Counted from the stretch's first letter, positions 4,961-55,488 are shown. The stretch is 64,000 nucleotides of DNA from Candidatus Zixiibacteriota bacterium (GCA_021163775.1 JAGGTI010000127.1:691-64690); one strand, 5' to 3'. Numbers and translations are program-made. The notes: generated by a model from the sequence alone, not told the origin.

Positions 4961-5030
4961 GTTGGTGTGAGTAAAATGTTTGCTACCGACCAACAGAATT
5001 GATATTTTTGGACTGGAGTTCAAACTAAAC

Positions 5031-5987: not shown

Positions 5988-5990
5988 GCT

Positions 5991-6452
5991 ATGTGGAGTA
6001 GACTCTGTTTTGTATTTCTGATTGTGGTCGTCGCTATTGGGGCGATGTTGTTGACCGCTTGTGGTGGCTCAGATCTGAGTGACCCGCGTCAAACCGTGAT
6101 TTCGTTATTTGGGGCGATGGAGAAAGACGATGAGGCCGCCTTGACTCATCTGCTCGACCTGCCGGAACTGATGCGCCAGAGTCAGGAAGACTACGCTGTC
6201 CAGCGCGATGAAGCCCGGGTGTTCACCAATCCGGAACAGGTACTAAAAGACCTGACCGGCGATGGCGAAACCAAGAAAATCTGGTTTGCACATCAGCGTA
6301 TCGTAGCCAACGCCGAGATCATAGGCGAGACCGCGACGGTCGAAGTGACTTTTGTCGATAAAGAAGCTTCGCGTGGCTATCGCACCAAGTTCGGTTTACA
6401 CCTCAAGAACGGTGAGTGGCGGATTTTTTCGTTCAAGACGTTTACCGAGTAA
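5991..6452 (+). CDS. Small lipoprotein, NTF2/DUF4878-like fold suspected
   Basis: The 153-aa product has lipobox LLTAC followed by GGSD. It starts 3 nt after the PorV-like gene. The family assignment is uncertain. Confidence 0.45.
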   Translation: MWSRLCFVFLIVVVAIGAMLLTACGGSDLSDPRQTVISLFGAMEKDDEAALTHLLDLPELMRQSQEDYAVQRDEARVFTNPEQVLKDLTGDGETKKIWFAHQRIVANAEIIGETATVEVTFVDKEASRGYRTKFGLHLKNGEWRIFSFKTFTE

Positions 6453-15096: not shown

Positions 15097-18033
15097 ATGG
15101 CTACAACCTCACAAAAGCTTGTCTTTGATAGTCGTCTCCTGGTCATAGAGGAGTTGCTTCTACAGCGGAAGTTTGAAGCGGCTCGGAAGGATCTGCAGGC
15201 TCTACAGCCGAGTGAATTTGTCGGTGAAAGCATCCATGCAGGTCTTTATCTATCGCACACGGCCGACATCAGCTTCATTGATGGAGACTATCAAGAGGCT
15301 CTGGACAAAGGGCTCCGCGCCGCGAAAATTCTGGCCGGATCGCACCACAATCGGCAGTACGCTCGAGCCTTGCATATTCTCTCAAAAACTTATTGGGCGC
15401 TCGGAAATTTGAGGGCCGCTGAAGACAAAGCCCACGACGCTGTGGCCTCGTATCGCCGTGCGGGCGATTACTTTGGCCAGGGGAGTGCACTCAACGAGTT
15501 GGCGCACATCGCATTTATGCGATCAGATTTTTCTGTCGCTTGTGAGTATCTCGATCAAGCAATCACATTAGCCGAGGGGCATCCGGCGAAGGCGGCCATG
15601 CTCTCAGGTAACGCTGGCCGTATTCGCACCCTGATGGGTGATTGGTCGGCGGCGGAATCAGACCTGAAAGTGGCTCTTGAGTATTCCCAGGAGAACAGCG
15701 ATGAACAGGCAGAAGCTGAAACCCTTCTTTCCTTAGGATATGTCCATCTGAGAAAACGGGAGTTCGTGTTTGCTGAAAATTGCTTTACTGATGCCAAAGA
15801 GATTATTGATCGTCTCGGTTTGAAGCGTCAGAAAATATTCCAGCAGAAGTATGCCGGTGAGTTGGCCTTGGAGAAAGGCGACCTCTATCGGGCCAAAACT
15901 CATTTAGAAGAAGCATATCGGGCAGGTCGGAGGCTGGCGCCGGAGTCGGCGCTCATTTCACAGGCCGGACGGCGTTTGGCTGAAGTTGAATTGGCTCTCG
16001 ATAATATTGATCAGGCAACTAAGTATGCCCACAAGGCACTTGAATTGGCGCTTCAAATCGGCGAACAGGCCGAAATAGGGCAGACCAGACGAGTTATTGC
16101 TGAGGCTTTTGCGGCTCGATCGGAATTCCCTGAAGCTCTGGAGAGCGGTCGTCAGGCGTTGGAAACGGCTGAAACAGCCGGTGATCCGCTCGATCTGGCA
16201 CGCACTGTTTTTTCGCTGGCCGAAATAATGGTTCAGGCAGGGTCGGATGATGCCGAGCGTATCAATGCTTTATATAGTAGGGCTGGCAAGATATTCCACC
16301 GTCTTGGTCTGGATTACTGGACCGCCGAGACAGATTATCGGGCTGGTGTTCTGGCCTGTAGTATTGGTCAGCTACCACGTGGTTTTAAGAAACTAAGTCA
16401 CTCCGAGAGGTTGTTTTCCGCTCTGGCTGAAACTGCCAAAGTCCGACGGGTCAGTCAGTTCCTGACAGGCTTGGCTGATCAGGCTGTGGCTTTGTCCGTT
16501 TCTGATGACAACGAGTTCAGGCTCTTCGGTCGGTTAATAAACCAGGCCGAGATAGAAGATATTGATGCCAGCCAGATGGGTGGTATTATTGAGGCTTTAT
16601 GCCGTCGGACTGGAGCCGATCGAGTGATTATTATGACTCCGGATCTTGAGGACGGCTCATTTACTTCTTCGGTGGTATTGACTGATAGACAGATACGCAC
16701 ATTTGTCGATGGTTTCCGTCGTCTGTTGGGTGAGGAGATCTCAACTACCAAGCCAACCTTATTGTTGGACTGTCGCCGCGATCCGTACGTGGCAGAACTG
16801 TTTTCGGATATGCCGGAAGTGATCGCCAGCGTGCTGGTGGTTCCTTATCGTATGGGTGACGGTACCCGCAGTTATATATATCTTGACCGTTTATCATCCG
16901 ATGGGCGTCTTAATCCGTTCAATCAGGATGCGCTGAATTTCACTGTAGGCTACTCAGATATCGTGGCTTTTATGTCGGCGGAGCTTCAGAGAGCGCGACT
17001 ATTGGAAGATAATCGTCGCCTCAAAGCTCAGCTTATGGAAGAGACCGCATTCCCGAACATTATCACCCGCAATCACGAAATGTTGCGTATTTTGGACCAA
17101 GTGCGACAGGTGGTCGATTCGCCGATTTCAGTCACTATTAATGGTCCCACGGGTAGTGGCAAAGACCTGTTAGCTCGGGCTATTCACTATAATTCGGTAC
17201 GCCGTGAGTACCGGTTCATTTCGGTTAATTGTGCCGCTTTGCCCGAGACGCTACTTGAGTCTGAACTGTTTGGGTATTGTCGGGGAGCTTTTACTGGCGC
17301 TGACCGTGACAAGCCGGGTCTATTTGAGGAAGCTGATGGCGGTACTTTTTTCCTCGATGAAATAGCTGATATGCCATTGAGTGTACAGGCCAAGATTCTT
17401 CGCGTTTTGGAAGAGAAAGAACTGGTTCGTCTGGGCGAAAGCACTCCACGTGCGGTGGATGTCAGAATTATTTCAGCTACCAACAAAGTGCTGAAGGATG
17501 AAATGAAAACAGGTCGTTTCCGTCAGGATCTCTACTATCGACTGGCTGGATTGACTTTCCGCCTTCCGCCGTTAGCCGATCGGCGCGAGGATATCCCATT
17601 ATTGGTGGAACATTTTCTGGCCGAGAGTGGCAAAAAGGTTTCACCGACCGTGATGAAGCACCTTATGGCCTATGACTGGCCGGGCAATGTTCGGGAGCTT
17701 GACAATGAAGTCAAGAAATTGGTTTTGTTGACCGGGAGCGATGAAACGATAGAGACCGACATTCTTTCAGCCAAGACAATGGCTACCGATTCCATGAATC
17801 AAAGTTTGGCGGTAAGCGTCTCAGCGCCAACGGAGAACATTCAATTTGATCAGGAATACTCACTATATGATTATCTGGCTGGCCATGAGCGCAGGTTCAT
17901 TGTACAGGCTTTAAAAGAGCGCAAAGGAGTCAAAAAACACGCGGCGGCTATGCTCAATATCCCGGAGTCAACCTTGCGTCTGAAGATCAAGGAGTACAAT
18001 ATTGATCTGAAGCGACTTGACGCTATCAATTGA
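15097..18033 (+). CDS. Sigma-54-dependent transcriptional activator with a long TPR-like N-terminal region, a GAF-like middle region, an AAA+ domain and a Fis-type HTH
   Basis: The product is 978 aa. The AAA+ region has Walker A GPTGSGKDLLARAIH, the sigma-54 contact motif ESELFGYCRGAFTGA, and Walker B FFLDEI. The C-terminal HTH reads KKHAAAMLNIPESTLRLKIKEY. The N-terminal 450 aa or so is helical-repeat (TPR-like). Confidence 0.85.
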   Translation: MATTSQKLVFDSRLLVIEELLLQRKFEAARKDLQALQPSEFVGESIHAGLYLSHTADISFIDGDYQEALDKGLRAAKILAGSHHNRQYARALHILSKTYWALGNLRAAEDKAHDAVASYRRAGDYFGQGSALNELAHIAFMRSDFSVACEYLDQAITLAEGHPAKAAMLSGNAGRIRTLMGDWSAAESDLKVALEYSQENSDEQAEAETLLSLGYVHLRKREFVFAENCFTDAKEIIDRLGLKRQKIFQQKYAGELALEKGDLYRAKTHLEEAYRAGRRLAPESALISQAGRRLAEVELALDNIDQATKYAHKALELALQIGEQAEIGQTRRVIAEAFAARSEFPEALESGRQALETAETAGDPLDLARTVFSLAEIMVQAGSDDAERINALYSRAGKIFHRLGLDYWTAETDYRAGVLACSIGQLPRGFKKLSHSERLFSALAETAKVRRVSQFLTGLADQAVALSVSDDNEFRLFGRLINQAEIEDIDASQMGGIIEALCRRTGADRVIIMTPDLEDGSFTSSVVLTDRQIRTFVDGFRRLLGEEISTTKPTLLLDCRRDPYVAELFSDMPEVIASVLVVPYRMGDGTRSYIYLDRLSSDGRLNPFNQDALNFTVGYSDIVAFMSAELQRARLLEDNRRLKAQLMEETAFPNIITRNHEMLRILDQVRQVVDSPISVTINGPTGSGKDLLARAIHYNSVRREYRFISVNCAALPETLLESELFGYCRGAFTGADRDKPGLFEEADGGTFFLDEIADMPLSVQAKILRVLEEKELVRLGESTPRAVDVRIISATNKVLKDEMKTGRFRQDLYYRLAGLTFRLPPLADRREDIPLLVEHFLAESGKKVSPTVMKHLMAYDWPGNVRELDNEVKKLVLLTGSDETIETDILSAKTMATDSMNQSLAVSVSAPTENIQFDQEYSLYDYLAGHERRFIVQALKERKGVKKHAAAMLNIPESTLRLKIKEYNIDLKRLDAIN

Positions 18034-18052
18034 GTGATCCACAAAAACGATT

Positions 18053-18081
18053 GCGCCCCACCTCGCGGGGCGCTTTTTTTG
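18053..18081 (+). terminator. Rho-independent terminator after the sigma-54 activator gene
   Basis: Stem gcgcccc (18053-18059) pairs with ggggcgc (18067-18073) and is followed by TTTTTTT. Confidence 0.7.
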
Positions 18082-18084
18082 TTT

Positions 18085-18888
18085 ATGCAACAATATTACT
18101 TTTACAAGCACTGTGCGGCCGACCCGTTTTTTAATATGGCCTTCGATGAAATGATGCTGGATTTCGTTCTGGAGCGACCCGATGTCATTTTGCTACGACT
18201 TTATACCTGGATGCCGGGGACAATCACGATTGGGCTGAATCAGGAGATGGATCGGGCACTTGATCTCTCACGATTGGGAAACACGCCGCTAATACGCCGA
18301 GTAACCGGCGGAAGAGCAGTTTATCATGATCCTTCTGAACTGACTTACGCTGTGGCCGTGAACCCTGAAGGGGTTGGCTTGGATGCTTGGCGTGGTTCGA
18401 TCTCTGACGTCTATCTCTATTTGGCTCAAGCACTTCAAGGCTATTTGAAGGTGCTGGGGGTGCGTAGTAAAGTGGTTCGAACTGTTTCGGAGCCAGCTCG
18501 TTCACCATCGACATTAGCTCGACAACCCTGTTTTGCTTCTGCGGCCCGATATGAGTTATTGGCCACAGGTGGTAAAGTGGTAGCTTCGGCTCAGCGTCGG
18601 ATTGGACGTGCTCTGTTACAGCACGGGTCAATAAAGCTGGATGGTGTCGCTACGCACGCCGCTCTGGAGGGTATGGAGGCAAGCGATCAAGATTTGCAAC
18701 CGCTTGGGAAGCGGCGATTTGACCGGATGGCTGACCTGTTTCTACGAACTTGGGCGAGTATTCTGGGTGGTCCTCCCGGGGGCGACTTACCCGTTTTGGA
18801 GGGATCGAGTCGTTTTCTTAAACGTCTCGAAAGAGTACACTTTCAGCCACTTGATCGACGGGATACTTTTGAACAGACAAACGGTTAA
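18085..18888 (+). CDS. Lipoate-protein ligase / octanoyltransferase family protein (LipM/LplA catalytic domain only)
   Basis: BPL/LPL catalytic motifs are present: LRLYTWMPGTITIGLNQ, IRRVTGGRAVYHD and GGKVVASAQRR...LQHGSI. I moved the start to the ATG at 18085, because the track start at 18034 would read through the terminator hairpin. Confidence 0.75.
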   Translation: MQQYYFYKHCAADPFFNMAFDEMMLDFVLERPDVILLRLYTWMPGTITIGLNQEMDRALDLSRLGNTPLIRRVTGGRAVYHDPSELTYAVAVNPEGVGLDAWRGSISDVYLYLAQALQGYLKVLGVRSKVVRTVSEPARSPSTLARQPCFASAARYELLATGGKVVASAQRRIGRALLQHGSIKLDGVATHAALEGMEASDQDLQPLGKRRFDRMADLFLRTWASILGGPPGGDLPVLEGSSRFLKRLERVHFQPLDRRDTFEQTNG

Positions 18889-19201
18889 TGGAGTCTATAG
18901 GAGAGCGGTTTAGATAGTCTCTTCAGCCTTGTTTCGCCAAAAATTCGCTTGACTTGGTTGTGCTGGCAGAATTATCTTCCGTGACTAATTGAGTAGGTGT
19001 GCGATAACACCGTAGATGTACGAGGATGGTGAGGTTGGTTATCGAAAAGTCAGTTGAGACAAGCAAGGTTTCATCCACCCTCCCTATGTTTGCTGGATAT
19101 TGGATAACAGGTTATTTATGGTTGCGATGGTGCGACAAATGACTTGCCAGCGATTGGTGTACATCGGTGTTTGAGTTTAGGCTTCTTTAGGAGGAAGAGC
19201 A

Positions 19202-22200
19202 ATGGCTGGGATTGGCAAAAGGCTGCTCGCGACAACTCTGGTTTTAACACTGGGGCTGTTTCTACTGCCGTTGAATTCTTTTGCTGCGTCCACCGGGCAA
19301 ATTAAGGGCAAAATAACGCACGGAGAGACCGGTGAACCGGTAATCGGTGCCTCGGTTCTCGTGGTTGGTACAACCCAGGGAGCCACGACTAACCTTGAAG
19401 GTGAATTTCAGGTCTATCGTATGGATCCCGGTACGTACGTGCTGAGAATCTCCCATGTGGATTTCGTGACCGTTGAGGTGACGGATGTGGTAGTGAAGAT
19501 TGACGAAACATTTGAGGTTAATCAGGGTATGACCTCGAAGGTTACCGACCTTGATGAGGTTATCACTGTCAAAGGTGTCCATGATATTTTGGACAAGTTT
19601 GTGAGCAGTAGCCAGGTAGTGATCAGTCAGGAGCAGATCAAGTCGGCACCCGTCCAAACCGTAGATAACCTGTTGCAACAGGTGGCTGGGGTGCGGACTA
19701 CCGCTGAGGGCGAAGTTTTTGTCCGTGGTGGTCGTGCTGGTGAGGTCGCTTATATTGTTGACGGTGTACCTATCGGCGATCCGCTTGGTGGTGGTGGTGG
19801 TGGTCAGGTTGGTGCCAACCTGTCACTGGTGTCAGGGTCTATTGCTGAAATTCAGATCATCAAAGACGGTTTCGATCCGGAGTATGGTAATGCTTTGTCC
19901 GGTATTGTTAATATTCGTAGTTTTACTGGTGATAAAAACAACACCACATTGAACTTGCATTATATGACCGATGATTTTGGCAACCAGGCCTTGAACAAGT
20001 ATTCGCGTAATATGGATTACCTTCGATTTACACTTTCGGGTCCGGATCCTCTCTTGAGCAACAAGATATTGCCGTCCATAGGACTGAACTTCCTGAAAGA
20101 TCAAGAATTTACCTATTTCCTGTATGCCGATGTTGACAAGAATGATGGTGTCTACCAAATGCAGGATTATAACACGCCAACGACAGTGCGTGACTGGCCG
20201 ACCATGGGTTTTCTGGGTTTTGATATCCCCGAACGTTTGAGTAACCGGTATCACTTTGAGTCCAATTTCAGGTTCAGGCCCCGGCAAAATCTGAAGTTTA
20301 TTCTTTCCTACAAGAATTGGCACACCAAAGTAACTCACTTTAGTCAGTCTTATTGGGAATATCGGTACAGTGGTCTTACGGCTCCGATTTATTCTCAGGA
20401 CCAGAGCAGTTTATCCCTGGAAATTACGCATTCGATCTCTCGTGAGATGAACTACGAGATAACTCTATCTTATTTTGATTACGATATTTCGGATAAGCCG
20501 GGTGACCCCAACAACCCGGGCAAGGTTCTTGATCCGGATGATTCCTACCTCGAGTACGAATGGGAAACATTTACCGATAATAACGGTAATGGAGTCTATG
20601 ATGCCCCTGAGCCGTTGATTAACCTGTTCCCCGATACAGCCAACTATGGCAACAATTTTAATGGGCCTGGTTACACTCACGGTGAGCGGAATTACTACTC
20701 CACCTATCAGGGCGGCGACCGAATCCCAAGCAACTTCCGGTTCAACAACAATGACATGATTGACTACTATGAGGGCGAACCATTCCTTGATCTTAATGGT
20801 AATGGTGTTTGGGATGAAGGTGACTATCTGAATGACCGGAATAATAACGGTGTGCTGGATGCGGATCGGATTCCGACGGTTCAGGTGCCGCGAGCTGAGC
20901 CGTATATTGACGGTGATTCGGCTATCGGTGAACCGTTTACCGACCTTAATTCCAACTTTGTCTACGATGAAGGTATCGATATTTTCTTCCAGAGTGCTGA
21001 CGAAAATAACCAGGATTTGAATCATAACGGCATGTATGACGGGACCGATCCTATGACCTGGACACCAGGGGTGCCTTTCCTTGATCGTGATGGCGACGGG
21101 ATTTTTGACCGGCCCAATAACAGCTATGACCCAGGTGAACCATACACTGACCTCAATGGTAACGGAAAATATGACTACGGTGGCACCGGAACTTTCCTTG
21201 AACCGGGAACTCATAATGAGGGTATGTTGTGGAGCGAACGGTCGCTTCGCAGACTCCGGGCTGAGTTTAAGGTTGTGCGTCAGATGAAGAAGCACGAGGT
21301 CAAGGCTGGTTTCTTCCTGGCGAGGGAAGAACTTGAGTACGGCGAGATTGAGCGGCCATACATGGCTTACAACGGTCGGCCCGACACTCTTAATGCATAC
21401 TCTGATCGCGGTCTTTTCCGTGATTTCTACGAATATACACCGATAACTGGTGCTGTTTATTTTCGTGATAAGATTGAGTATGGCTCGATGGTGGCTTCAC
21501 TCGGACTCCGCTGGGATTTCTTTCTGCAGGATACCGACGAACTAGCCGGTATTATGCGGAGTGATGACCGCGGCGGTCTTATTCTCGGTGATCGGCAACA
21601 ATTTGCCCCTCGGATCGGTTTCTCATATCCGATTTCGGATAAGGCGAAGGTGTATTTCAACTATGGCCATTTCTTCCAGTTGCCGCAGTATTACCAGATG
21701 TATCGCCGGAACACGACCAGTGCCGACCAGAACGATGTTTTGGGTAACCCGAATCTGAGCTACCAAAAGACCATTCAGTACTCATTTGGAATCAAGTATA
21801 AGTTGGGTGAGAGCTACTCCGTTGACGTTGAAGGCTACTTTAAGGATGAGTTCGACAAGATCAACTCAGGCGATGTTCATGAAGAATACCTTATTCGGCA
21901 ACAGTACTTGAATAAGGATTACGGCCGCTCTCGGGGCTTCGAGTTGACTTTGGAACGACGCGGTGGTGGCCGTGTTAACGGAAGCATTTCATATACTTAT
22001 GCTTTTGCTTATGGCAAGGATTCAAAGTCTGCTGAGCAATTTGAGGATGATCTTCAATCGCGTGAGCCTTTGACCGAGTCGCCTCTGACAAACGATATCC
22101 GTCATTCTCTCAAGTCGGCTATTATGATTGCTATGCCTCAGACTGTCAAGCCGCGCCTGTTTGGGATTCCGATTCCGAACGGTTGGTATTTGTCAATAGA

Positions 22201-22549
22201 GACTATTATTGAGAGTGGCAAACCATTCACACCAGCCGCCAATTATCCTGGTCTTGCTGGTTCTACGACGGACCCTGAGACCAACTCGATGCGTTTCCCC
22301 ATGACAGCTACTTTCGATGTCAGGTTTACCAAGGAATTTGCTCTGGCCGGTCTTGACTGGCAGGCGATTCTGTGGGTTGAAAACCTGTTCAATCGGAAGA
22401 ATGTAGTTTCGGTTTATACTGCCACTGGTCGTGCAGATACTCAGCAGAATATTAATGGTCTTATTCTTGGTGGTACTGATTATGACCAAAATCCGTATAA
22501 CTGGGGCTACGGTCGCCAGATTCGTTTCGGACTTGAATTGAGCATATAA
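19202..22549 (+). CDS. TonB-dependent receptor-like outer-membrane barrel (CarboxypepD_reg domain + plug; Oar-type) with a large Ca-binding-repeat insertion
   Basis: The 1115-aa product has a signal peptide ending FAAS. It then has a CarboxypepD_reg-like domain (GKITHGETGEPVIGASVLVVGTTQGATTNLEGEFQV) and a TonB-box-like DEVITVKG. The plug region reads VDNLLQQVAGV...VFVRGGRAGEVAYIVDGVPIGDP...EYGNALSGIVNI. The barrel is long. Repeats of the DLNGNGVWDEGD type lie between residues of about 430 and 675. Confidence 0.8.
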   Translation: MAGIGKRLLATTLVLTLGLFLLPLNSFAASTGQIKGKITHGETGEPVIGASVLVVGTTQGATTNLEGEFQVYRMDPGTYVLRISHVDFVTVEVTDVVVKIDETFEVNQGMTSKVTDLDEVITVKGVHDILDKFVSSSQVVISQEQIKSAPVQTVDNLLQQVAGVRTTAEGEVFVRGGRAGEVAYIVDGVPIGDPLGGGGGGQVGANLSLVSGSIAEIQIIKDGFDPEYGNALSGIVNIRSFTGDKNNTTLNLHYMTDDFGNQALNKYSRNMDYLRFTLSGPDPLLSNKILPSIGLNFLKDQEFTYFLYADVDKNDGVYQMQDYNTPTTVRDWPTMGFLGFDIPERLSNRYHFESNFRFRPRQNLKFILSYKNWHTKVTHFSQSYWEYRYSGLTAPIYSQDQSSLSLEITHSISREMNYEITLSYFDYDISDKPGDPNNPGKVLDPDDSYLEYEWETFTDNNGNGVYDAPEPLINLFPDTANYGNNFNGPGYTHGERNYYSTYQGGDRIPSNFRFNNNDMIDYYEGEPFLDLNGNGVWDEGDYLNDRNNNGVLDADRIPTVQVPRAEPYIDGDSAIGEPFTDLNSNFVYDEGIDIFFQSADENNQDLNHNGMYDGTDPMTWTPGVPFLDRDGDGIFDRPNNSYDPGEPYTDLNGNGKYDYGGTGTFLEPGTHNEGMLWSERSLRRLRAEFKVVRQMKKHEVKAGFFLAREELEYGEIERPYMAYNGRPDTLNAYSDRGLFRDFYEYTPITGAVYFRDKIEYGSMVASLGLRWDFFLQDTDELAGIMRSDDRGGLILGDRQQFAPRIGFSYPISDKAKVYFNYGHFFQLPQYYQMYRRNTTSADQNDVLGNPNLSYQKTIQYSFGIKYKLGESYSVDVEGYFKDEFDKINSGDVHEEYLIRQQYLNKDYGRSRGFELTLERRGGGRVNGSISYTYAFAYGKDSKSAEQFEDDLQSREPLTESPLTNDIRHSLKSAIMIAMPQTVKPRLFGIPIPNGWYLSIETIIESGKPFTPAANYPGLAGSTTDPETNSMRFPMTATFDVRFTKEFALAGLDWQAILWVENLFNRKNVVSVYTATGRADTQQNINGLILGGTDYDQNPYNWGYGRQIRFGLELSI

Positions 22550-22600
22550 CATTATTGTAATGGATAGAAATTCATTTTGTTGAACATAAACGAGGTAGAT

Positions 22601-23611
22601 ATGTTTGCACAGCCAAGTCGGACTACTCGACAGCCCCGAATCGGGCGCGTTGTGGCCGTGGTGCTGTCTGTTACGCTGGCCTTTCTTATTGCCGGCCTGA
22701 CTCCTTCTGAGGTGTCAGCACAGGCCAAGGTAGGTACCACTGGGGCACAATTCCTAGAATTGGGTGTCTCGGCGCGATCAATGGGCATGGGTGATGCTTT
22801 CACCGCGATTTCCAACGACGTGTCGGCGGTTTACTACAACCCAGCCGGGCTGACCTCCCTGTTGGGGACAGAAATCATGGCGACGTATGTCGATATGCCG
22901 GTCGGAGTCCAGTACGGCTTTTTCGCGGCGGGCTTTCCGCTGGAATCAATAGGCGGTGTGTTAGGTATTGGGGTCTGCTATCTGTCGTCCGGAGATATGA
23001 TCGAACGAACCTACAATCGGGGCGTTGATTATATTTCCGAGGGTATCTATGGTACCGGACGGACTTTTTCCTGGACCGATATGGCTGTGTCCGTGAGTTA
23101 TGGACGATACCTGACTGATCGCTTCTCGCTCGGTTTTACGGTACGCTATATTGGTGAGCAGGTCCATGACTATTCAGCGGCCAGCTGGGGCGCTGATGTC
23201 GGTACCAGCTACAACACCGGTTACCGTGATTTCAAACTCGCTATGGCCATCACCAATTTTGGACCGGATCTGAAGTTTATTGATAAGGCGGCTCCGTTGC
23301 CGATCAACTTCCGTTTCGGTGGTTCTATCAACGTTATTGATGGAGTTGATCATGTGATGGTAATGGCGGCCGAAGGGTCTCACCCCTCGGATAACCTGGA
23401 AAAATATAATGTTGGGCTTGAGTACTTGTTCAAGGACAGGTTTGCTCTTCGCGTGGGCAGTCGCTTTAATTATGATAGCGATGGCATCACTGCTGGAGCG
23501 GGTGTGCGGGTTCCTTACGGTGAAGAAGGTCTCATTAGTTTTGACTATGCATACCAGGACTTTGGCCTGTTGACAGAAGTTCATCGATTCACAATGGCAT
23601 TTGCTTTTTAA
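22601..23611 (+). CDS. PorV/PorQ family outer-membrane beta-barrel protein (paralog 2)
   Basis: I prefer the ATG at 22601, which has a GAGG RBS 5 nt upstream. The family signature is GAQFLELGVSARSMGMGDAFTAISNDVSAVYYNPAGL. The product ends in the aromatic sequence FTMAFAF. Confidence 0.65.
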   Translation: MFAQPSRTTRQPRIGRVVAVVLSVTLAFLIAGLTPSEVSAQAKVGTTGAQFLELGVSARSMGMGDAFTAISNDVSAVYYNPAGLTSLLGTEIMATYVDMPVGVQYGFFAAGFPLESIGGVLGIGVCYLSSGDMIERTYNRGVDYISEGIYGTGRTFSWTDMAVSVSYGRYLTDRFSLGFTVRYIGEQVHDYSAASWGADVGTSYNTGYRDFKLAMAITNFGPDLKFIDKAAPLPINFRFGGSINVIDGVDHVMVMAAEGSHPSDNLEKYNVGLEYLFKDRFALRVGSRFNYDSDGITAGAGVRVPYGEEGLISFDYAYQDFGLLTEVHRFTMAFAF

Positions 23612-23632
23612 CTGGGTAAAGGCACTCATAAG

Positions 23633-25906
23633 ATGAATACATTTAGATATAGCATTGTTCTCCTGACCCTGGGTGGTCTGCTACTTCCGGCGTTGTTCTT
23701 CGGGGGTTGCTCGAAAAACCTCGAGGGTGACACTTACGCCAATGAGAAACCAGTGGTCTGGTTTGTCAATGTGCCTCCGGAAGGTTCTCGATCCTCAATC
23801 AATCCGATCGTCAACTGGTACGGTCAGGATCGTGACGGTCAGATCGACTATTACCGGTACATCGTTGTTCGTGAGGGCGACATGGGCACAGCTATGGGCA
23901 GAACTGACTGGAATCCGCTGGATGATCCACTGAACGAGACTGATCTGGCCACTTATGTCAGTGATTACCTCGGCGATATCTCGGATACTATGTGGACGGT
24001 GTTGTTGGTGCGAGCCGATTCTACTGATCCCCATACCAGTAATATCGTCCCGATGTCAGCCGAGATGAATGATCCGGTGATGACTTTTGTTCCGCAGTAT
24101 GTGTTCGTGCAGGCCTATGACGAAGAAGGCCTCGGGTCGGATATCGCGTTCCGCCGCTTCTTACGGAATGATAACCCACCCAACACGCGTATTATTGGGT
24201 TCATTGAGGGGGTACCGTTTATCAACTCACCCGGACCCTCCGGGCCGGCGACTGGTATCAGGTTGAGATGGAAGGGTTCCGACGTTATCGACTATCCTAC
24301 CGATGCACCTCCTTTTGAATTTCAGTGGAAACTGTTTGGACCGTATTCGGATGCCGAGTATGACGCCCTTATAGATTCCTTCCTGGTGCCTGTCTTTGTG
24401 ACCAACGATGCCCGGGTATTCAAGTTTGGATTGCCAGCGGTTGAGATAGGTTGCGATACGGTCATAGACACAACAGCAACTCCGCCTGATACAACAATCA
24501 CCTGTGATAGCTTGCCAACGGCATTGATTATCTGCGACACTTCCTATGTGGACACTAGTATGGTCGAGTCTTGCGACACGATCCTGATTGACACTCTCGA
24601 AGGTAGCAACATCTACGGTACCGTGGACACTCTGTTGCGCGTCTACGACGACGATTTTCTGACCAGTGATGAATTCTACCGCGTTGCCGACAGCTCTAAT
24701 GATGGGTTCGGCAATGTCTGGGTCACCGACATGAATGAAACGATTTACGATGTTTACAAGAATGCCCCGGCTGATACAACCCAGGCTGGTACCTTCATAT
24801 TTGTGGTTCGCAGTCGTGATGATGCCGAAGTTCCCGATCTGACTCCTAACTGGCGCAAATTCACGGTAATAAATCCTCAGCATGAACGGGATGTTCTGGT
24901 AGTGTTGTGGAATAGCAGCGCCCAGGAGAACAAATCGGACGATGATTCGACAAGGGCCTTCTGGGAGAACGCCATTAATGATTGGATAACTGATGGGCGA
25001 GTTGGAGATGTTACATTTGACTCTGCCCTTGATATCCAGCACGAGTCAGGCCACTCTCAGCATAATGCCATGCTCAAGCTTATTCTTCGATATAAGGTTG
25101 CGATCATGCATCAGGATGCCGAGGTGAGTGGTAAGTGGAGTGCTCAGGGTGAGGCGGTTCAGAACGTAATCACCGCGCTTCAGACCGGTGTAAACGTGTG
25201 GGTTACGGCTCGCGTGCCGCTTGGTTCTCACGGAACAGCTAGTCAAAGAGCAGTTGATTACGCCAGCCCTGATTATCAGTATTTCTTCGGTATTCAGCAA
25301 ACCACATTCCCCGGTTGGAGTTCTGGTTTCTTCAATAACACGGATGGTTACGGCCTTGGCTTACCTCGCACCGAGCACTTTATCGGGACACTGTCGCTGG
25401 ATGAAGATAAATGGCCGGAACTGGCTGTGGATTCTGTTTTGCTTCGTACCCGATACAAGTGGGAAGGGAGTATCGATCCCTTGGTGTTCCCATTCTATCC
25501 GTATATGTCGGATCTCGGTGCTTTGCCGCAGGTTGGATGGTGTGTCCGTACCTTTGATACCGAAGCAATGTATCTGTTCAAGTCCTTGTATGGCAATGAG
25601 CATGCTCAGTTCACTGAGCTTAGTTACCATGGACGGCCGGTCTGTGTCCGACTCAATCGTGGTCTGTTCCGAACAGTGCACTTCATGTTTACACCTCTGG
25701 CCCTGGAGCCAACATCAGCTGGTGTTATGATTGATGGAGTGATGGACTGGCTCTTTGATGGCAGGACGACTGGGTTAACATCGAGCGGACGCACGGATCG
25801 TAACGCGGCTTTGTCGGCCGATTTGGAGAATCGCTACTGGCAATGTTATTGGAATGCCAATGGTGATGCCGAGACTTTCCATGAACTGCTGAAGAACGCT
25901 TACTAA
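23633..25906 (+). CDS. Large lipoprotein of unknown function (757 aa)
   Basis: The signal peptide has a lipobox-like FFGGC followed by SKN. The gene starts 21 nt after the PorV-like gene. No family motif was recognised. Confidence 0.6.
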   Translation: MNTFRYSIVLLTLGGLLLPALFFGGCSKNLEGDTYANEKPVVWFVNVPPEGSRSSINPIVNWYGQDRDGQIDYYRYIVVREGDMGTAMGRTDWNPLDDPLNETDLATYVSDYLGDISDTMWTVLLVRADSTDPHTSNIVPMSAEMNDPVMTFVPQYVFVQAYDEEGLGSDIAFRRFLRNDNPPNTRIIGFIEGVPFINSPGPSGPATGIRLRWKGSDVIDYPTDAPPFEFQWKLFGPYSDAEYDALIDSFLVPVFVTNDARVFKFGLPAVEIGCDTVIDTTATPPDTTITCDSLPTALIICDTSYVDTSMVESCDTILIDTLEGSNIYGTVDTLLRVYDDDFLTSDEFYRVADSSNDGFGNVWVTDMNETIYDVYKNAPADTTQAGTFIFVVRSRDDAEVPDLTPNWRKFTVINPQHERDVLVVLWNSSAQENKSDDDSTRAFWENAINDWITDGRVGDVTFDSALDIQHESGHSQHNAMLKLILRYKVAIMHQDAEVSGKWSAQGEAVQNVITALQTGVNVWVTARVPLGSHGTASQRAVDYASPDYQYFFGIQQTTFPGWSSGFFNNTDGYGLGLPRTEHFIGTLSLDEDKWPELAVDSVLLRTRYKWEGSIDPLVFPFYPYMSDLGALPQVGWCVRTFDTEAMYLFKSLYGNEHAQFTELSYHGRPVCVRLNRGLFRTVHFMFTPLALEPTSAGVMIDGVMDWLFDGRTTGLTSSGRTDRNAALSADLENRYWQCYWNANGDAETFHELLKNAY

Positions 25907-25960
25907 CCGACGCCAAGTCGAGAATATATCGTTACGCTGTGAGGCGTAGCCGAACTTTAA

Positions 25961-25990
25961 GGGGCCGAGAAATCGGCCCCTTTGCTTTGG
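25961..25990 (+). terminator. Rho-independent terminator
   Basis: Stem ggggccga, loop gaaa, stem tcggcccc, followed by tttgctttgg. Confidence 0.65.
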
Positions 25991-26004
25991 TGTTAAGCAG
26001 GTAG

Positions 26005-26290
26005 TCCGACCTCAGTTGGAGATCTGTTGATAAACACTATTCACAGTTGTGTCGGGTCCTTATCCCGTCAAGACGGGATTGAGACCTGACACGTAAGTGC
26101 ATGTCGGACAAAAGCGGCAGGTCTCACGTATTCGCCCGGGCGAATTCGCAGGACCCGTCGCAACTACATAAGAGGGCTTAATCAACGAACCCCTTAGCGG
26201 GTGTGTGAACTGGTAGCAACTGGAATCAACTGGACGACATCATCTTTATGTGGTGTCGGGCGATTCTGCCCGACACCTGGCAGTCCGAAC
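26005..26290. repeat. Intergenic palindrome-rich repeat element, locus A (REP/BIME-like family)
   Basis: The locus contains a nested hairpin at 26049-26091 (gtgtcgggtc...gacctgacac enclosing atcccg/cgggat) and the palindrome attcgcccgggcgaat (26129-26144). It also has the shared motif cccttagcgg (26191-26200) and the hairpin gtgtcgggc-gattct-gcccgacac (26253-26276). Confidence 0.6.
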
Positions 26291-26297
26291 CGTCGCT

Positions 26298-28478
26298 CTA
26301 TCTTAGCCGCAATTTTCTGATTTGATTGTGCTCAGGGAAACGGTTGGCCGCCTCGGTCAATACCGAATCGGCTGTGACGAGTCGACCGGTGGACAAGTAG
26401 CCACTGTACAAGTTGATGTAAGCCTCAGCCAGCAGAGGGTCGAGGCTCAGAGCTTTCAGGGAGTAGCTGATCGCCGTTTCGAAGTAGCCTTCAACACCGG
26501 CGCAATAACCAAGCAAATAATATGTTTTGGCGCGTTCTATGTTAAACGCCTGTTGTCGGTTGCTGGAATTGGCGTGGAAGGCTTGATCATCGGTTTCGAT
26601 AGGGGGCGGGACCGCCCGTTCAGCGCGATGCAAACATTTTTCAACGGTCGGGTTGCACCCATCTCGGGCCAGTATTGAGGCTCCCCAGTTTAATACAATC
26701 AGGGCTTCATCGGTTGCATAAGTGGCGGTTTCAACAGCACGCCAAAGACTGTCAATGGTTATAGTCGGGTCAGCCGCTAACGCCCGCAGTTTTATGATAT
26801 TGGCCGGCACGCTGTATGGCGCCAGTGTCAGAGCCTGGCTGGTCAGGTGAAGAGCCTCGGTATACCTCCCATTTACAAGGTGTAGCGATGCCAGGTTATG
26901 GTAGGCTTTGGGTCGCTGTGGATGCAGAGTTATCTCACGGTCAAAATAGAACGACGCTGAATCCTCCTGTCCCATGCGGAAGAAACAGGCTCCCAGACTG
27001 AGATTCGTTTCCGGGAAGGTCGGGTCGAGTGCGGCCGCCTGTCGATAAGTGGTCAGGGCGTCTTGGTATTTTCCTTGATCGTATTGGTATAGCCCCCGTG
27101 ACATTAGATTCTGCGATGACCGTTGTTGCGGGTAACTCATCGGAGGAGAAAAAGAGAACCAAACGGCGGCGACAGCTATTGAGGCTGGTCCGATCAGTAG
27201 CCAGGGCCGTTGACGGGCGATTTCAGTGATCCGGCAAACTCCGGCTATAGCGAATACGAAATAGTAGGGCAGGAGGGGTAATCGAAAACGAGCATTCACA
27301 AAAAAGAAGGCCATAGCCAGCGAATAAACTATCAGTAAGACCATGATAAACTGCGCTGACTCGTTGCGTCGATATTGTGCGATTAACCCGATAAGGGCCA
27401 GCGGAAAAATAACCCCAAACGAAAGCGGATTGTACCGAAGTATGCCAAGGGAAGCAAAGTGAGGCCCGACCTGCCGATTGTTGGAAATCTCTCGGTCTAC
27501 CAACTGATAACCGACTCGTTTCGCGTATAGCTCAAGAAACTTCCCCGGATGAGAGAGAATCCAGGCGATGGCCCGGTCGCGCCAGTAGTCGGATATCTCG
27601 CCCGGTTTGAGTGGGCCGCCTTGATCGGTTTCAGCTATCTGTCTTATCTGTCGCAAAGTCCAGTTGTGCCCGAGTGGTTCCGGCAGGATGGCCGAGAGTC
27701 CGTCAGCCGTGTCATTGTTGCCGATGAATAAATTGATTCCGCCCTGAGACGCAATCAGCACCGGGTCACCGGCTACCATTAGATTGCGGATTGATACCGG
27801 TATGACACAGATTGCCAGACCACATAGAAACAGGCCGATTTGACCGGCAGTTGAGGCGACCGCGGATGATCGTTGACTGGGGCGCACTATCATCCATATC
27901 ACTATCAGCGGCACGGCAATTAGAACTGTGGGACGGGTGATGGCGGCCAGACCAAACAGCAGGCCGGTGCCCATTATGTCACGCGTATGTCGCGATTCCA
28001 GCCAGATAAGAAAACGATGCACCGCCAATTGCGTCAGCAGGCAGAACATCGGATCCAGCAACAACTCAGATTCAAAGTATATTACCGCGGGGAAAAGAGC
28101 CTGGAGTGCGGCCGCTCCCCACGCCAGTTTGTTGCCGGAAATACGTTGGGCCAGCAAGTAGGTCATGACGATTGAAGCCAGGCCGATTACCAGCCCGAAC
28201 AAACGAGCTGTCCAGAGTGAAGCCCCAAACAGATAGTACAATGCTCCCAGAAAGAGTGAATAAAGGGGTGCTCTGAAGTAAGTAGTATCGCCGAGCACGT
28301 TGCCATTGGCTATGGTCTCGGCCCAATGATGGTGATACCAGTTGTCAACCGTAAGCTGATTCCATACCGGAGCCTGGCTGTACTCGGCCAAATAAGTAAG
28401 GCGTACCGCAAGGCCCAAAACCAATACGATCAGTAAGCCCTTGTGCTTTCTTAGTGCGGCAAAAAACCCGAGAACCAT
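26298..28478 (-). CDS. Glycosyltransferase family 39 (ArnT/PMT_2-like) membrane protein fused to C-terminal TPR repeats
   Basis: The 726-aa product has about 11 TM helices and an N-terminal region typical of PMT_2 (VRLTYLAEY...YFRAPLYSLFLGALYYLFG). The C-terminal 270 aa or so has TPR-like repeats (YQDALTTYRQAAALDP..., YTEALHLTSQALTLAP...). Confidence 0.7.
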   Translation of the reverse strand: MVLGFFAALRKHKGLLIVLVLGLAVRLTYLAEYSQAPVWNQLTVDNWYHHHWAETIANGNVLGDTTYFRAPLYSLFLGALYYLFGASLWTARLFGLVIGLASIVMTYLLAQRISGNKLAWGAAALQALFPAVIYFESELLLDPMFCLLTQLAVHRFLIWLESRHTRDIMGTGLLFGLAAITRPTVLIAVPLIVIWMIVRPSQRSSAVASTAGQIGLFLCGLAICVIPVSIRNLMVAGDPVLIASQGGINLFIGNNDTADGLSAILPEPLGHNWTLRQIRQIAETDQGGPLKPGEISDYWRDRAIAWILSHPGKFLELYAKRVGYQLVDREISNNRQVGPHFASLGILRYNPLSFGVIFPLALIGLIAQYRRNESAQFIMVLLIVYSLAMAFFFVNARFRLPLLPYYFVFAIAGVCRITEIARQRPWLLIGPASIAVAAVWFSFSPPMSYPQQRSSQNLMSRGLYQYDQGKYQDALTTYRQAAALDPTFPETNLSLGACFFRMGQEDSASFYFDREITLHPQRPKAYHNLASLHLVNGRYTEALHLTSQALTLAPYSVPANIIKLRALAADPTITIDSLWRAVETATYATDEALIVLNWGASILARDGCNPTVEKCLHRAERAVPPPIETDDQAFHANSSNRQQAFNIERAKTYYLLGYCAGVEGYFETAISYSLKALSLDPLLAEAYINLYSGYLSTGRLVTADSVLTEAANRFPEHNQIRKLRLR

Positions 28479-28725: not shown

Positions 28726-28758
28726 GTTAGAGGGATGGAAGAAGTAAAAGGAGTCTCA

Positions 28759-31668
28759 ATGCGTATTAGAAGCCGCCTGAACATAATAGCCTCGATTCTG
28801 CTCACAATCGGAGTATTTCTATCCAGCCCACAGTTTTCAGCCGCGGCTGACACTGGTGATCTTGGTTGGTTACAAGAACCGCAGTTTGTTACTAACGGGC
28901 GGGTATCCGTGGTTATATTTCTCGAAAATGATGATCTTCGGGATCAGGTGGAAAGGACTTCCTCGGTCGGACCGCTGAGCCGATCGGTACGGATCAAGTC
29001 GGTGAGTCGTAGTCTCCAGTCATATGTACCGTCACAGGCGGCGGAAATTAAACAATATCTGGATCAGGTTTCTACCGAAGAAGTGGTTCGTTTTTGGATC
29101 GTTCCAGCTTTTTCCGCAACTTTGGATCAAGCCCAAATACTGGACCTTGCGGCGATGCCTGGTGTTTACAAAATAGTCCCTGATCTTGGAATAGAAAATA
29201 TTGAGCCGGTCGAGATTCGAACTTCGGATGCTATCGCGACTTCATCCTCCAGTCATCTTCAAATGCTCAACGTGCCGTATCTCTGGAGCCTTGGCCTGAC
29301 TGGAGCCGGACGCCTGGTATGTTCTTTTGATACCGGGGTAGAGCAGTCGCATCCAGCCCTCTCGGGCAACTGGCGCGGCAACTCGGCTTCCTTGTCGTCC
29401 GCGTGGTTTTCAACAATAACCCCAAACTCGTTACCCACTGACAACGCTGACCATGGCACCCACACTATGGGTACTATGATAGGAGTTGACGGGGCCGATA
29501 CAATTGGTGTGGCACCGGGTGCCGAGTGGATTACGGCCGGTGTAATCGATCAGGGGAAATCACTCCAGGGGACTTTTTCAGATATTTTGGCCGCTTTCCA
29601 ATGGGCCTTGAATCCAGATGGTGACACGGCTACTACCGATGATGTTCCTGATGTAATCCTGAATTCCTGGGGCGTACCCGCCTCTCTGCTCGGGCCGTGT
29701 GATGATACCTTCTTCGCCGCCATTGACAATGTTGAAGCGGCCGGGATTGTGTGTATTTTCTCTGCCGGCAACGAAGGCCCAGCCCCATCAACTTTGCGCA
29801 ACCCGGCCAATCGGGCATCATCGCCGCTGAATGCTTTTTCGGTCGGAGCGGTTGACAACGATCGGGTAGTCGCCAGTTTTTCATCGCGGGGACCGGGTGG
29901 TTGCGGATTGACTTCTATCAAACCGGAAATCGTCGCCCCTGGGATAGCAATCCGGTCGGCGTCCAAGACTGGTGGGTACAAGCTAATGAGCGGTACTTCG
30001 ATGGCGGCCCCGTTTATTGCCGGCCTGGTGGCACTCTGTCGTCAGTACAGTCCGGACGCTACGGTTGAAGAGATCAAATGGGCGATTATTAACGCCTCGG
30101 AAGACCTGGGTGTGGAGGGTGAAGATAACGCGTATGGTTATGGTTTCCCTGATGCCGCCAAGTTGCTGGAGTATCTTTCCAGCCCGGATAATCCACATTT
30201 TCAATTGGTTGGCTCTTCAGTCTCCGACGACGGCATAGCCTCGCCAGGTGAGACAGTGGAACTGAACCTTACCCTTATCAGGACCGGTGGTTCGGTAGAA
30301 TTGGTAACCGGCCATTTGATCGCCGAAAACGAAACCGACATTCAGGTTGTTTCAGGCGTGGCCGATTTCTTTTTCGGCTTTTCCGGGACGACTTCTAATG
30401 GCAGTCAGGCTTTTCAACTACAGCTTAACCCCGATCTTCTCAATGGTTCCGAGTTTACTCTGGCTCTGAGTGTACGCGATACTACCGGTCAGGTATATGA
30501 TTCGCTGAACTTCGTGCTTCCCATTGGTTTTGCACCGAATGGAACGATGGCCGATCACAGCTCGGCTGAACTCGAGTTCACCGTATCGGATTTCGGCCAG
30601 TATGGTCTGGCGCCGGGATCTATTTACAATGTCGGTGGACAGGGGTTCCGCTACGCCGGAAGTGATAACTTGTTATACGAAGCGGGCATTATCATTGGTC
30701 GCAGTTCACTTCAGTTATCGAGTTCGGTTCGTGATGAAAACGGTTTATTTACTCCGTCTGACTTTGTACCGGAAATCGGCTTGTCGGACGAAATACTCGG
30801 AACCGACTTTGCTGTTCATCGGACTGCTCGCATGGTCGATGAAGCCTCCGAAGTGTCAATACCTGTGGCGGTCAATCAGATTACTTCTGACTTCGGTCCA
30901 GCCGGTGACGACGGAATCTTGTTGATCCGGTATCAACTGGTCAACACCTCCCTGACCACAATAAACGATCTGTACTTCGGTTTCCTGTCAGATTTTGACA
31001 TGATTGGCGGGTCGGAACAACTCAGCCTGACTCCCGACCTCAACTTGATCAGTCAGACCAGCACCATCGGTCAGGCGATTGGGTTACTTGGACTCTCGGG
31101 CCTTACGAGTTTCCATGTTGTCGAAAATGTCGGTGTCAAGACCGGGTTAAGTCGTTTGAATCAGTTTGAGATGATCTCATCGCCCGGCACTGTTATACCC
31201 GATCAACCCGGAGATTACCTGACCATAATCAGTGGCGGACCGTTCTCATTGGTACCCGGTGATTCAGTCGAAATTGCCATCGCCCTGCTTGCTGGTGCCG
31301 ATGTCGATCAGGTGAATCTGCGTGCGATTCGTGCTCGCGAACTATATATGTCGCCAACCGGTATTGATTTTCCGCTTAGCTCACTGCCTGATGGTTTCCA
31401 GTTGCACCAAAATTACCCTAATCCGTTCAATCCTACCACATTAATAGCTTTTGATCTTCCGGTGGCTGGTGATGTGTCACTACAGGTGTTCAACCTGTTG
31501 GGCCAGCAAGTAAGACAGCTTCACTCAGGCTATCTTAGTGTCGGAAATCATCTGGTTGAGTGGGATGGTCGTACCGATAACGGGTCGGGTGTGGCTTCCG
31601 GAGTCTACTTCTATCGGCTAACTACCAGTGAATACTCGCAATCCCGGAAAATGGTGCTTTTGCGCTAA
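28759..31668 (+). CDS. S8 family (subtilisin-like) serine peptidase with T9SS type-A C-terminal sorting domain
   Basis: The catalytic triad motifs are SFDTGV (Asp), HGTHTMGTM (His) and GTSMAAPFIAG (Ser). The C-terminus reads NYPNPFNPTTLIAFDL...GVYFYRLTT...KMVLLR. I prefer the ATG at 28759 (MRIRSRLNIIASILL signal peptide) over 28735. Confidence 0.9.
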   Translation: MRIRSRLNIIASILLTIGVFLSSPQFSAAADTGDLGWLQEPQFVTNGRVSVVIFLENDDLRDQVERTSSVGPLSRSVRIKSVSRSLQSYVPSQAAEIKQYLDQVSTEEVVRFWIVPAFSATLDQAQILDLAAMPGVYKIVPDLGIENIEPVEIRTSDAIATSSSSHLQMLNVPYLWSLGLTGAGRLVCSFDTGVEQSHPALSGNWRGNSASLSSAWFSTITPNSLPTDNADHGTHTMGTMIGVDGADTIGVAPGAEWITAGVIDQGKSLQGTFSDILAAFQWALNPDGDTATTDDVPDVILNSWGVPASLLGPCDDTFFAAIDNVEAAGIVCIFSAGNEGPAPSTLRNPANRASSPLNAFSVGAVDNDRVVASFSSRGPGGCGLTSIKPEIVAPGIAIRSASKTGGYKLMSGTSMAAPFIAGLVALCRQYSPDATVEEIKWAIINASEDLGVEGEDNAYGYGFPDAAKLLEYLSSPDNPHFQLVGSSVSDDGIASPGETVELNLTLIRTGGSVELVTGHLIAENETDIQVVSGVADFFFGFSGTTSNGSQAFQLQLNPDLLNGSEFTLALSVRDTTGQVYDSLNFVLPIGFAPNGTMADHSSAELEFTVSDFGQYGLAPGSIYNVGGQGFRYAGSDNLLYEAGIIIGRSSLQLSSSVRDENGLFTPSDFVPEIGLSDEILGTDFAVHRTARMVDEASEVSIPVAVNQITSDFGPAGDDGILLIRYQLVNTSLTTINDLYFGFLSDFDMIGGSEQLSLTPDLNLISQTSTIGQAIGLLGLSGLTSFHVVENVGVKTGLSRLNQFEMISSPGTVIPDQPGDYLTIISGGPFSLVPGDSVEIAIALLAGADVDQVNLRAIRARELYMSPTGIDFPLSSLPDGFQLHQNYPNPFNPTTLIAFDLPVAGDVSLQVFNLLGQQVRQLHSGYLSVGNHLVEWDGRTDNGSGVASGVYFYRLTTSEYSQSRKMVLLR

Positions 31669-31760
31669 CCGATATCGTTCTATATTAAAAATTGAACATT
31701 TTGAATCACATCTCGTTTAGTTGAGTATGTGAGTATAGTTGAACCATGAGGTATGTGTAA

Positions 31761-54484: not shown

Positions 54485-54495
54485 AGGATATTGAG

Positions 54496-55476: not shown

Positions 55477-55488
55477 GGATGGTGCCTG

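Follow-up and report, generated by a model that had tools for sequence, protein, structure and literature searches.

A conserved Zixibacteria operon for a TonB-dependent transporter, a PorV-family barrel and an orphan lipoprotein

The DNA analysed here, a stretch of 64,000 nucleotides from a Candidatus Zixiibacteriota bacterium (GCA_021163775.1 JAGGTI010000127.1:691-64690; referred to below as the window), carries at positions 19,202 to 25,906 three co-directional genes for outer-membrane (OM) proteins: a TonB-dependent transporter (A), a β-barrel protein of the PorV/PorQ family (B) and a large lipoprotein (C). An original prediction, made from the sequence alone, had picked out these genes as an operon with gaps of about 50 and 21 nt that ends at a terminator, and the open reading frames on the plus strand and the terminator hairpin both bear this out. 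The elements of the operon are as follows.

18936-18978, plus strand: predicted promoter; an A-tract, then CGCTTGACTT; -35 TTGACT at 18949-18954, 18-nt spacer, -10 TATCTT at 18973-18978
19202-22549, plus strand: gene A, TonB-dependent transporter, 1115 aa; signal peptide about aa 1-28
22601-23611, plus strand: gene B, PorV/PorQ-family 14-strand-type OM barrel, 336 aa; signal peptide aa 1-40; C-terminus ...FAF
23633-25906, plus strand: gene C, 757-aa lipoprotein; lipobox FFGG-C26
25959-25989, plus strand: intrinsic terminator; hairpin 25959-25982 with a 10-bp GC-rich stem, then UUUGCUUUG

The gap between A and B measures 51 nt with the ATG at 22601, which follows a GAGG Shine-Dalgarno sequence and is a likelier start for B (336 aa) than the TTG at 22577 (344 aa); 21 nt separate B from C. 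The terminator folds with a dG of -24 kcal/mol (z = -4.24), a stability reached by none of 200 shuffled sequences, and is overlooked by a simple consensus scan because the stem takes up part of the T run. At the other end of the operon, a promoter scan of the window places the promoter about 225 nt 5′ of the A start codon. Of 48 distinct upstream regions of orthologues, 41 contain CTTGACTT, and the alignment shows 80% conservation or more in the columns of the A-tract, -35 and -10. The consensus over the loci is AAAAAA-tCGCTTGACTT followed about 17-18 nt on by TAtcTT or TAATTT, lying roughly 225-260 nt upstream of A. Judged by its sequence, the conserved element is a promoter of the sigma-70 type whose A-tract is UP-like; this suggests strong expression of the operon in its own right, and A, B and C are predicted to form one transcription unit that runs from its own promoter to an intrinsic terminator. 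The leader of about 225 nt between the promoter and the start of A (18979-19201) is mostly unconserved, save for a GGTGAGGTTGG-like patch. Sigma-54 control by the neighbouring TPR/sigma-54 activator was considered and rejected: across 49 upstream regions the best TGGCAC-N5-TTGCW matches score 7.55, against 7.50 for shuffled sequence. A Fur box upstream of A is likewise not enriched (11.08 against 11.05), despite the presence of Fur and FeoAB close by, and Rfam gives no match to a riboswitch or other known RNA, either in the window at the gathering score or in 18850-19250 at E ≤ 1.

The conservation in related genomes on which the original prediction hinged holds across the phylum. A scan of one genome per species yielded 77 loci, most of them labelled Zixibacteria; the others bear labels such as 'uncultured Ignavibacteriales' or 'bacterium', and as their gene order is identical these labels may be coarse. 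The order of the three genes and the small gaps between them (typically 14-61 nt for A-B and 7-64 nt for B-C) are kept in about 55 species-level loci, nearly all of them Zixibacteria. That the locus is a phylum-wide, separately promoted operon for three OM proteins seems secure. When the window proteins were compared with all loci by tblastn, a single gene order was found wherever the contig suffices: a sigma-54 activator, an LplA/B-like gene, A, B, C, a PMT_2+TPR glycosyltransferase on the opposite strand, an S8 protease and an M6 protease. Synteny reaches further still, to Fur-FeoAB and a CbiQ-TruA-transaldolase block. This raises the question of whether the three genes are merely co-transcribed and serve independent functions, their order being a by-product of strong long-range synteny in the phylum. 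Conserved order does extend well past the trio, with the sigma-54 activator at one end and the FeoB and CbiQ-TruA blocks at the other, and the adjacency of A and B can be broken by inserted genes. However, the short gaps between genes on the same strand are still there where C has fallen to 26% identity, the unit has one promoter and one terminator, and the inserted genes land inside it and leave it unsplit. We consider independent functions very unlikely.

The inserted genes are found in three divergent loci (L079, L080 and L082 of our scan), where paralogous proteins about 860 aa long, one or two per locus, are encoded between A and B. These proteins lack a Pfam domain and finish with an end (...GKxVVIK) resembling a type IX secretion system (T9SS) C-terminal domain (CTD). 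In L082 the unit of an 860-aa protein and a B-type barrel is duplicated. Members of the family were located at the following positions.

L079, 1308-7007: about 860-aa CTD-protein family
L080, 4273-6951: about 860-aa CTD-protein family
L082, 2862-9006: about 860-aa CTD-protein family
L073, 9491-11887: about 860-aa CTD-protein family
L084: about 860-aa CTD-protein family

More than 2000 homologues of this family exist, all 'hypothetical' and from Zixibacteria, and they occur also away from A-B-C, in tandem copies that neighbour peptidases (C1, M29, M20) and an MFS transporter. The protein can be rejected as an obligate fourth subunit, being missing from the operon in most lineages and present elsewhere in other contexts. 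A further apparent variant, a plug-less A annotated with 871 aa in L002/L010, is an artefact: the assembly of CP070824.1 has a gap, a run of N at about 6230-6330 of L002, to which the N-terminal 250 aa are lost.

Protein A has the CarboxypepD_reg, plug and barrel architecture that had been predicted for it, with all its Pfam domain matches (CarbopepD_reg_2, CarboxypepD_reg, Plug and TonB_dep_Rec_b-barrel) above the Pfam cut-offs; the barrel itself scores 71.2 bits with PF00593 against a cut-off of 27. Four further features can be placed along the gene.

19298-19564, plus strand: CarboxypepD_reg-like N-terminal extension, aa 33-121; PF13715 58.7 bits, PF13620 49.5 bits
19550-19570, plus strand: TonB-box-like motif LDEVITV, aa 117-123; phylum consensus DLDxTITV
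19604-19903, plus strand: plug, aa 135-234; PF07715 42.9 bits against a cut-off of 23.9
20507-21241, plus strand: insert, aa 436-680 (about 245 aa), with a high content of D, N and G; seven DxNxNGxxD calcium-loop-like motifs

The motif LDEVITV is a candidate TonB box by virtue of its placement ahead of the plug, as in SusC-type transporters. The plug is the best conserved section of A, with a column identity of 0.8-0.9, and A orthologues as a whole share 46-72% identity over about 55 loci with hardly any indels; the homologues listed for A were Zixibacteria orthologues with at least 56% identity. When a profile of 32 orthologues was compared with the PDB, solved relatives were found for the N-terminal extension and plug only. 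The extension matches domains of the CarboxypepD_reg type in TonB-dependent transporters and in a SusC homologue, while the plug profile matches the plugs of XusA (9gbc), CirA, YncD and PqqU. The best match overall is 9gbc_A, which we take to be XusA, a Bacteroides transporter partnered with the surface lipoprotein XusB. Solved barrels were not matched by this profile at E < 0.001. The 9gbc structure is cited in a bioRxiv study entitled 'Structural basis of iron piracy by human gut Bacteroides' (10.1101/2024.04.15.589501).

The most unusual part of A is the insert. Its seven DxNxNGxxD motifs lie at aa 459, 530, 545, 581, 605, 628 and 650, compared with 0.06 expected from 2000 shuffles, and in 49 orthologues across the phylum the insert is conserved with no gaps. 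Assignment of the insert as TSP_3, dockerin or EF-hand was rejected, no Pfam model matching this stretch even at E = 5. Tight turns at approximately aa 360-364, 414-418 and 696-700 alternate with longer connections, and on this basis we place the insert in an extracellular loop, so that aa 436-680 are probably extracellular loop 4.

The description of A as 'Oar-type' in the original prediction stands for the domain architecture, which is that of Oar from Myxococcus xanthus, and falls short in other respects. The CarboxypepD_reg extension is present in SusC-type transporters too and is therefore no Oar-specific mark. The Oar-like barrel model PF25183 has precomputed matches on many A orthologues, whereas the A of the window does not match it at E ≤ 0.01. 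The oar gene adjoins its own TonB/ExbBD cluster (PMC6434023), whereas no Ton genes were seen in the flanks of A. A also falls far short of the SusC/RagA class: it reaches 59.8 bits with the SusC/RagA model TIGR04056, against a cut-off of 368, the match covering the N-terminal 190 aa or so, and approaches none of the NCBIfam equivalog models. With B and C giving no SusD-family match, the operon is, as had been proposed, not a SusC/SusD pair.

The assignment of protein B to the PorV/PorQ family is robust. It scores 197.3 bits with the NCBIfam PorV_fam model NF033709 (cut-off 90), which it covers end to end, and its sole sequence match in the PDB is Flavobacterium johnsoniae PorV (6h3i), with which it has in common the N-terminal signature motif and several strands. 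At the same time B lies under all the equivalog cut-offs: it scores 68 of the 250 bits needed for PorV (NF033710), 108 of 220 for PorQ (NF033711) and 64 of 325 for PorV2 (NF052325). Orthologues share 50-76% identity across the loci. B is one of four PorV-family paralogues within the window, and the others have the following surroundings.

4451-4960: LptE, 169 aa; PF04390 45 bits; 19 nt before the PorQ-like barrel
4980-5987: PorQ-like barrel, the most PorQ-like of the window; NF033711 180 bits against a cut-off of 220
5991-6452: small lipoprotein, 153 aa, lipobox LTAC; 3 nt after the PorQ-like barrel
51806-54484: BNR/sortilin-like protein, 892 aa; FlgD_ig/CTD-like C-terminus
54496-55476 and 55489-56385: two tandem PorV-family barrels, directly after the 892-aa BNR/sortilin-like protein; mutual identity about 24%

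It had been claimed that a PorV-like barrel is paired with a large secreted or lipidated protein at two other places in the window. This is the case at 51806-56385, where the 892-aa protein precedes two PorV-family genes, whereas the barrel at 4980-5987 is flanked by lipoproteins that are small (LptE with 169 aa and the protein of 153 aa). Taken with B and C, the genes at 4980-5987 and 5991-6452 give the window two instances of a PorV-type barrel gene with a lipoprotein gene directly behind it, the pair at 4980-6452 lying beside an LPS-assembly gene. A PorV-type barrel preceded by a CTD protein is seen once in the window and again in the variant operons of L079, L080 and L082, where the arrangement resembles the position of porU upstream of porV.

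These observations bring into play an alternative in which the operon is a T9SS-linked module, with B binding or shuttling CTD proteins, A acting as a PorF-like accessory or Oar-like exporter and C as a lipoprotein scaffold; the cargo might be, for example, the S8 and M6 proteases encoded alongside. The family membership of B, with PorV as the sole solved sequence relative, fits this scheme, as do the one or two CTD-like-ended proteins between A and B in three lineages. The neighbouring proteases at 28735-33914, of which the S8 subtilase has 977 aa and the M6 metalloprotease 717 aa, each bear a type A sorting domain of the T9SS, scoring 42-43 bits with TIGR04183 (cut-off 23). There are also precedents for transporter-like proteins with a plug that are implicated in protein secretion rather than nutrient import. 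PorF of Porphyromonas gingivalis (PG0534/PGN_1437) is needed for normal T9SS output by a mechanism that has not been described (PMC5445135, PMC12704123), and Oar is required for export of PopC (PMC6434023). The comparison of PorF with A is by literature description only, and for neither PorF nor Oar has an operon shared with a lipoprotein and a PorV-like barrel been described. The high conservation and the strong promoter, constitutive in appearance, would likewise fit a housekeeping machine. However, B lies far under the PorV, PorQ and PorV2 equivalog cut-offs and has three paralogues in 64 kb, one of which is nearer PorQ. In contrast to PorV and PorQ, it is encoded beside a transporter and a lipoprotein that lacks a CTD. 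Most lineages have no CTD protein in the operon, and the family concerned is also found away from A-B-C. As stated in the original prediction, the trio matches no described T9SS core module, and C is unlike any T9SS component in sequence or fold. A T9SS-linked module is the main rival to the reading favoured below, and seems to us somewhat unlikely.

Protein C was classed as a lipoprotein because G25 and C26 of its lipobox (...LFFGG-C26) are nearly invariant in 49 homologues. It gives no match to Pfam or NCBIfam models even at E = 5, and a profile of the 49 sequences found nothing in the PDB. A word-indexed search yielded 127 homologues, all unnamed or 'hypothetical', with named source organisms that are nearly all Zixibacteria; an exhaustive profile search of 1.84 billion representatives gave 590 matches at E < 1e-3. 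An AlphaFold2 model (pLDDT 85.5, pTM 0.77) divides the protein into two main parts.

23744-24877, plus strand: tandem immunoglobulin (Ig)/fibronectin type III (FN3)-like β-sandwich domains, aa 38-415 approximately; model secondary structure and Foldseek matches to tandem FN3/Ig proteins
24884-25768, plus strand: α/β domain, aa 418-712 approximately; class I glutamine-amidotransferase-like (ThuA-like, GH42 trimerisation-domain-like) fold

The best conserved parts of C are aa 41-240 and 361-420, and a cysteine pair (C301/C314) is nearly invariant. Modelled apart, aa 410-757 reach a pLDDT of 86.7, and Foldseek relates the α/β domain to lin1909, STM3548, ThuA-like proteins, HisH and the GH42 middle domain with probabilities of 0.99-1.0 and modest TM-scores of about 0.5 per target. 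Residues E418, D467, G519, R527, S651, P669 and R673 are invariant between aa 418 and 712. In the 49 homologues this region has no invariant Cys or His and the Cys-His-Glu triad is not conserved; the fold is there and the catalytic triad is missing, so that C was rejected as an amidotransferase-class enzyme, an activity that the domain probably lacks. A helical tail of low conservation, with no β-sandwich in the model, extends to aa 757, and neither a type A nor a type B sorting domain was detected in C with Por_Secre_tail, TIGR04183 or CHU_C. The possibility that C would turn out to be a SusD-like protein, a T9SS component or a Lol or Bam accessory had been set out beforehand. Searches of Pfam, NCBIfam and the PDB were empty for all of these and for any solved protein, and neither sequence nor fold places C in a known family. 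With homologues sharing 26-58% identity and with indel-rich regions, C is the fastest evolving of the three proteins, which would be consistent with exposure at the cell surface.

A third explanation draws on a barrel and lipoprotein of the Bam complex. BamG, a 14-strand barrel of the FadL/PorV superfamily, is paired with the lipoprotein BamH and holds its lipidated N-terminus, and the BamG2 and BamH2 genes are adjacent (PMC12578637). B and C, with the lipoprotein gene directly after that of a FadL/PorV-type barrel, mirror that pair, and BamG and BamH have been reported in 6 of 7 other phyla of the Fibrobacteres, Chlorobi and Bacteroidetes (FCB) group (PMC12611786, PMC12578637). B and C might therefore be analogues of BamG and BamH within an OM biogenesis complex, or all three proteins might be abundant structural components of the OM. 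The phylum-wide conservation and strong predicted promoter fit such roles, and another PorQ-like barrel of the window adjoins LptE. However, among solved structures B matches PorV, not BamG. C is unlike BamH in sequence and fold: its profile finds no solved BAM subunit, and BamH is not in the top 50 Foldseek matches of C. There is no BamA context, bamA and bamD not being nearby; the partner barrel is instead a TonB-dependent transporter, and A retains all the hallmarks of an energised one. A biogenesis or structural complex is in our estimation very unlikely.

The closest parallels are to be found among the uptake systems of Bacteroidota. Almost all characterised TonB-dependent transporters are importers, and transporters of the FCB group typically partner lipoproteins encoded downstream, such as SusD, RagB, BtuG, XusB and SusE/F-type proteins. 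SusC/SusD, RagA/RagB, BtuB/BtuG and XusA/XusB resemble the trio in having a transporter that carries a CarboxypepD_reg extension, and their TonB box ahead of the plug has a candidate counterpart in the LDEVITV motif of A. The Bacteroidota pairs share with it a lipoprotein downstream in the operon and T9SS-secreted hydrolases nearby, and XusA is the best solved relative of the N-terminal third of A. There are also clear differences. The trio has a PorV-family barrel gene between the transporter and the lipoprotein, the barrel of A has no solved match (E < 0.001) and carries the insert of about 245 aa with calcium-loop motifs, and in place of the helical SusD or the β-propellers BtuG and XusB, C has an Ig-like stalk and an amidotransferase-like head.

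Considering these points together, the reading that we favour, though we would give it slightly less than an even chance, is that A, B and C form a TonB-energised OM complex with a lipoprotein accessory and an adaptor barrel, following the logic of SusCD, BtuBG and XusAB. In this complex TonB would engage the LDEVITV box of A and shift the plug, and the calcium-loop insert of about 245 aa would provide a binding or docking surface. C, lipid-anchored at Cys26, would present its Ig-like stalk and non-catalytic amidotransferase-like head as a capture, cap or accessory subunit, a role comparable to that of SusD, SusE/F-type binding proteins, BtuG or XusB beside Bacteroidota transporters. B, as a PorV/FadL-type barrel, would be the adaptor next to A, gripping the N-terminal lipid anchor of C as BamG does that of BamH, and there is published precedent for a FadL-type barrel that holds a surface lipoprotein (PMC12611786, PMC12578637). 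Where a lineage encodes an additional CTD protein within the operon, the CTD of that protein could be held by B, in the way that PorU and PorZ are held by PorV and PorQ.

The original prediction had left uptake and export or anchoring as alternatives, and we lean towards uptake. Several observations favour the proposed transport complex. A is intact, with plug, barrel, CarboxypepD_reg extension and a conserved TonB-box-like motif, and its best solved relative is XusA; the calcium-loop motifs far exceed chance and are conserved; C has a conserved lipobox and a stalk-and-head architecture and evolves fastest; a PorV-family gene directly precedes a lipoprotein gene twice in the window; and genes for secreted hydrolases lie close by or, in some lineages, inside the operon. 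The extra secreted CTD proteins in L079, L080 and L082 parallel the secreted enzymes of polysaccharide utilisation loci. Import is the most likely direction of transport, and peptides or other products of the T9SS-secreted S8 and M6 proteases are a plausible cargo.

Several observations weigh against uptake by such a complex. The conservation of A and B is unusually high for a nutrient transporter and the promoter appears constitutive. The upstream region, with no riboswitch, Fur box or sigma-54 promoter detected, gives no pointer to a substrate. The adjacency of the proteases is weak as functional evidence, because gene order is conserved over tens of kilobases in the phylum. After Cys26 of C, a lipoprotein export signal of the Bacteroidota type was not found. 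Finally, to our knowledge the roles described so far for the PorV/PorQ family all lie in type IX secretion and none in uptake.

It is also conceivable, if distinctly unlikely, that the trio is an undescribed Zixibacteria-specific OM machine in which a TonB-energised barrel is coupled to a PorV-type barrel and handles proteins rather than small nutrients. Such a machine might, for example, power the release, surface attachment or turnover of T9SS cargo or surface lipoproteins, with the calcium-loop domain of A docking the Ig-like domains of C in a calcium-dependent manner reminiscent of dockerin and cohesin.

The surroundings of the operon show several features of interest in their own right. 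Upstream, the sigma-54 activator (978 aa, with an N-terminal TPR/MalT-like region) abuts the gene of the LplA/B-like lipoate-ligase family at 15097-18888, the stop of one being adjacent to the start of the other. Both genes are kept upstream of A phylum-wide, yet A has no sigma-54 promoter. Downstream, on the minus strand at 26298-28478 and convergent with C, lies the gene for a PMT_2 (GT39/ArnT-like) membrane glycosyltransferase fused to TPR, whose position is kept across the phylum. Its architecture resembles that of the eukaryotic TMTC O-mannosyltransferases, and the protein could glycosylate envelope proteins or lipopolysaccharide. The spacer of 300 nt between these convergent genes (25991-26297) contains several GC-rich inverted repeats, for example at about 26045-26100 and 26250-26280, which may be terminators of the minus-strand gene or a small RNA. 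The S8 and M6 proteases adjoin the operon in most loci, and in related loci Fur-FeoA-FeoB come next. Further along, a signalling cluster on the minus strand (44533-48417) encodes a Ser/Thr kinase with a CHASE2 domain (821 aa), a metallophosphoesterase and a protein with a double FHA. A large open reading frame that continues past the end of the window (61200-64000) matches TamB, YhdP and DUF748 models and is AsmA-like; AsmA-like proteins are implicated in inter-membrane lipid transport, and this is a further envelope-biogenesis gene of the region.

In conclusion, the logic of a transporter with a lipoprotein partner is already known, whereas the PorV-family barrel between the two, the calcium-loop insert of the transporter and the C lipoprotein family are new. 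The combination of a transporter, a PorV-type barrel and a phylum-specific lipoprotein has not been described in the searchable literature, and the papers that could be searched make no mention of T9SS, PorV-like proteins or the trio operon in Zixibacteria. Zixibacteria are an uncultured phylum of the FCB group, widespread in sediment and soil, and we know of no information on their cell envelope. The operon is among the most conserved envelope loci of the phylum, present in nearly every genome sampled. If the proposed complex proves correct, it would widen the roles of PorV/FadL-type barrels to include adaptors for assemblies of transporter and lipoprotein, and would bear on the role of transporter-like T9SS accessories such as PorF. 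The operon also offers a defined and, by prediction, strongly expressed surface target for the study of Zixibacteria.

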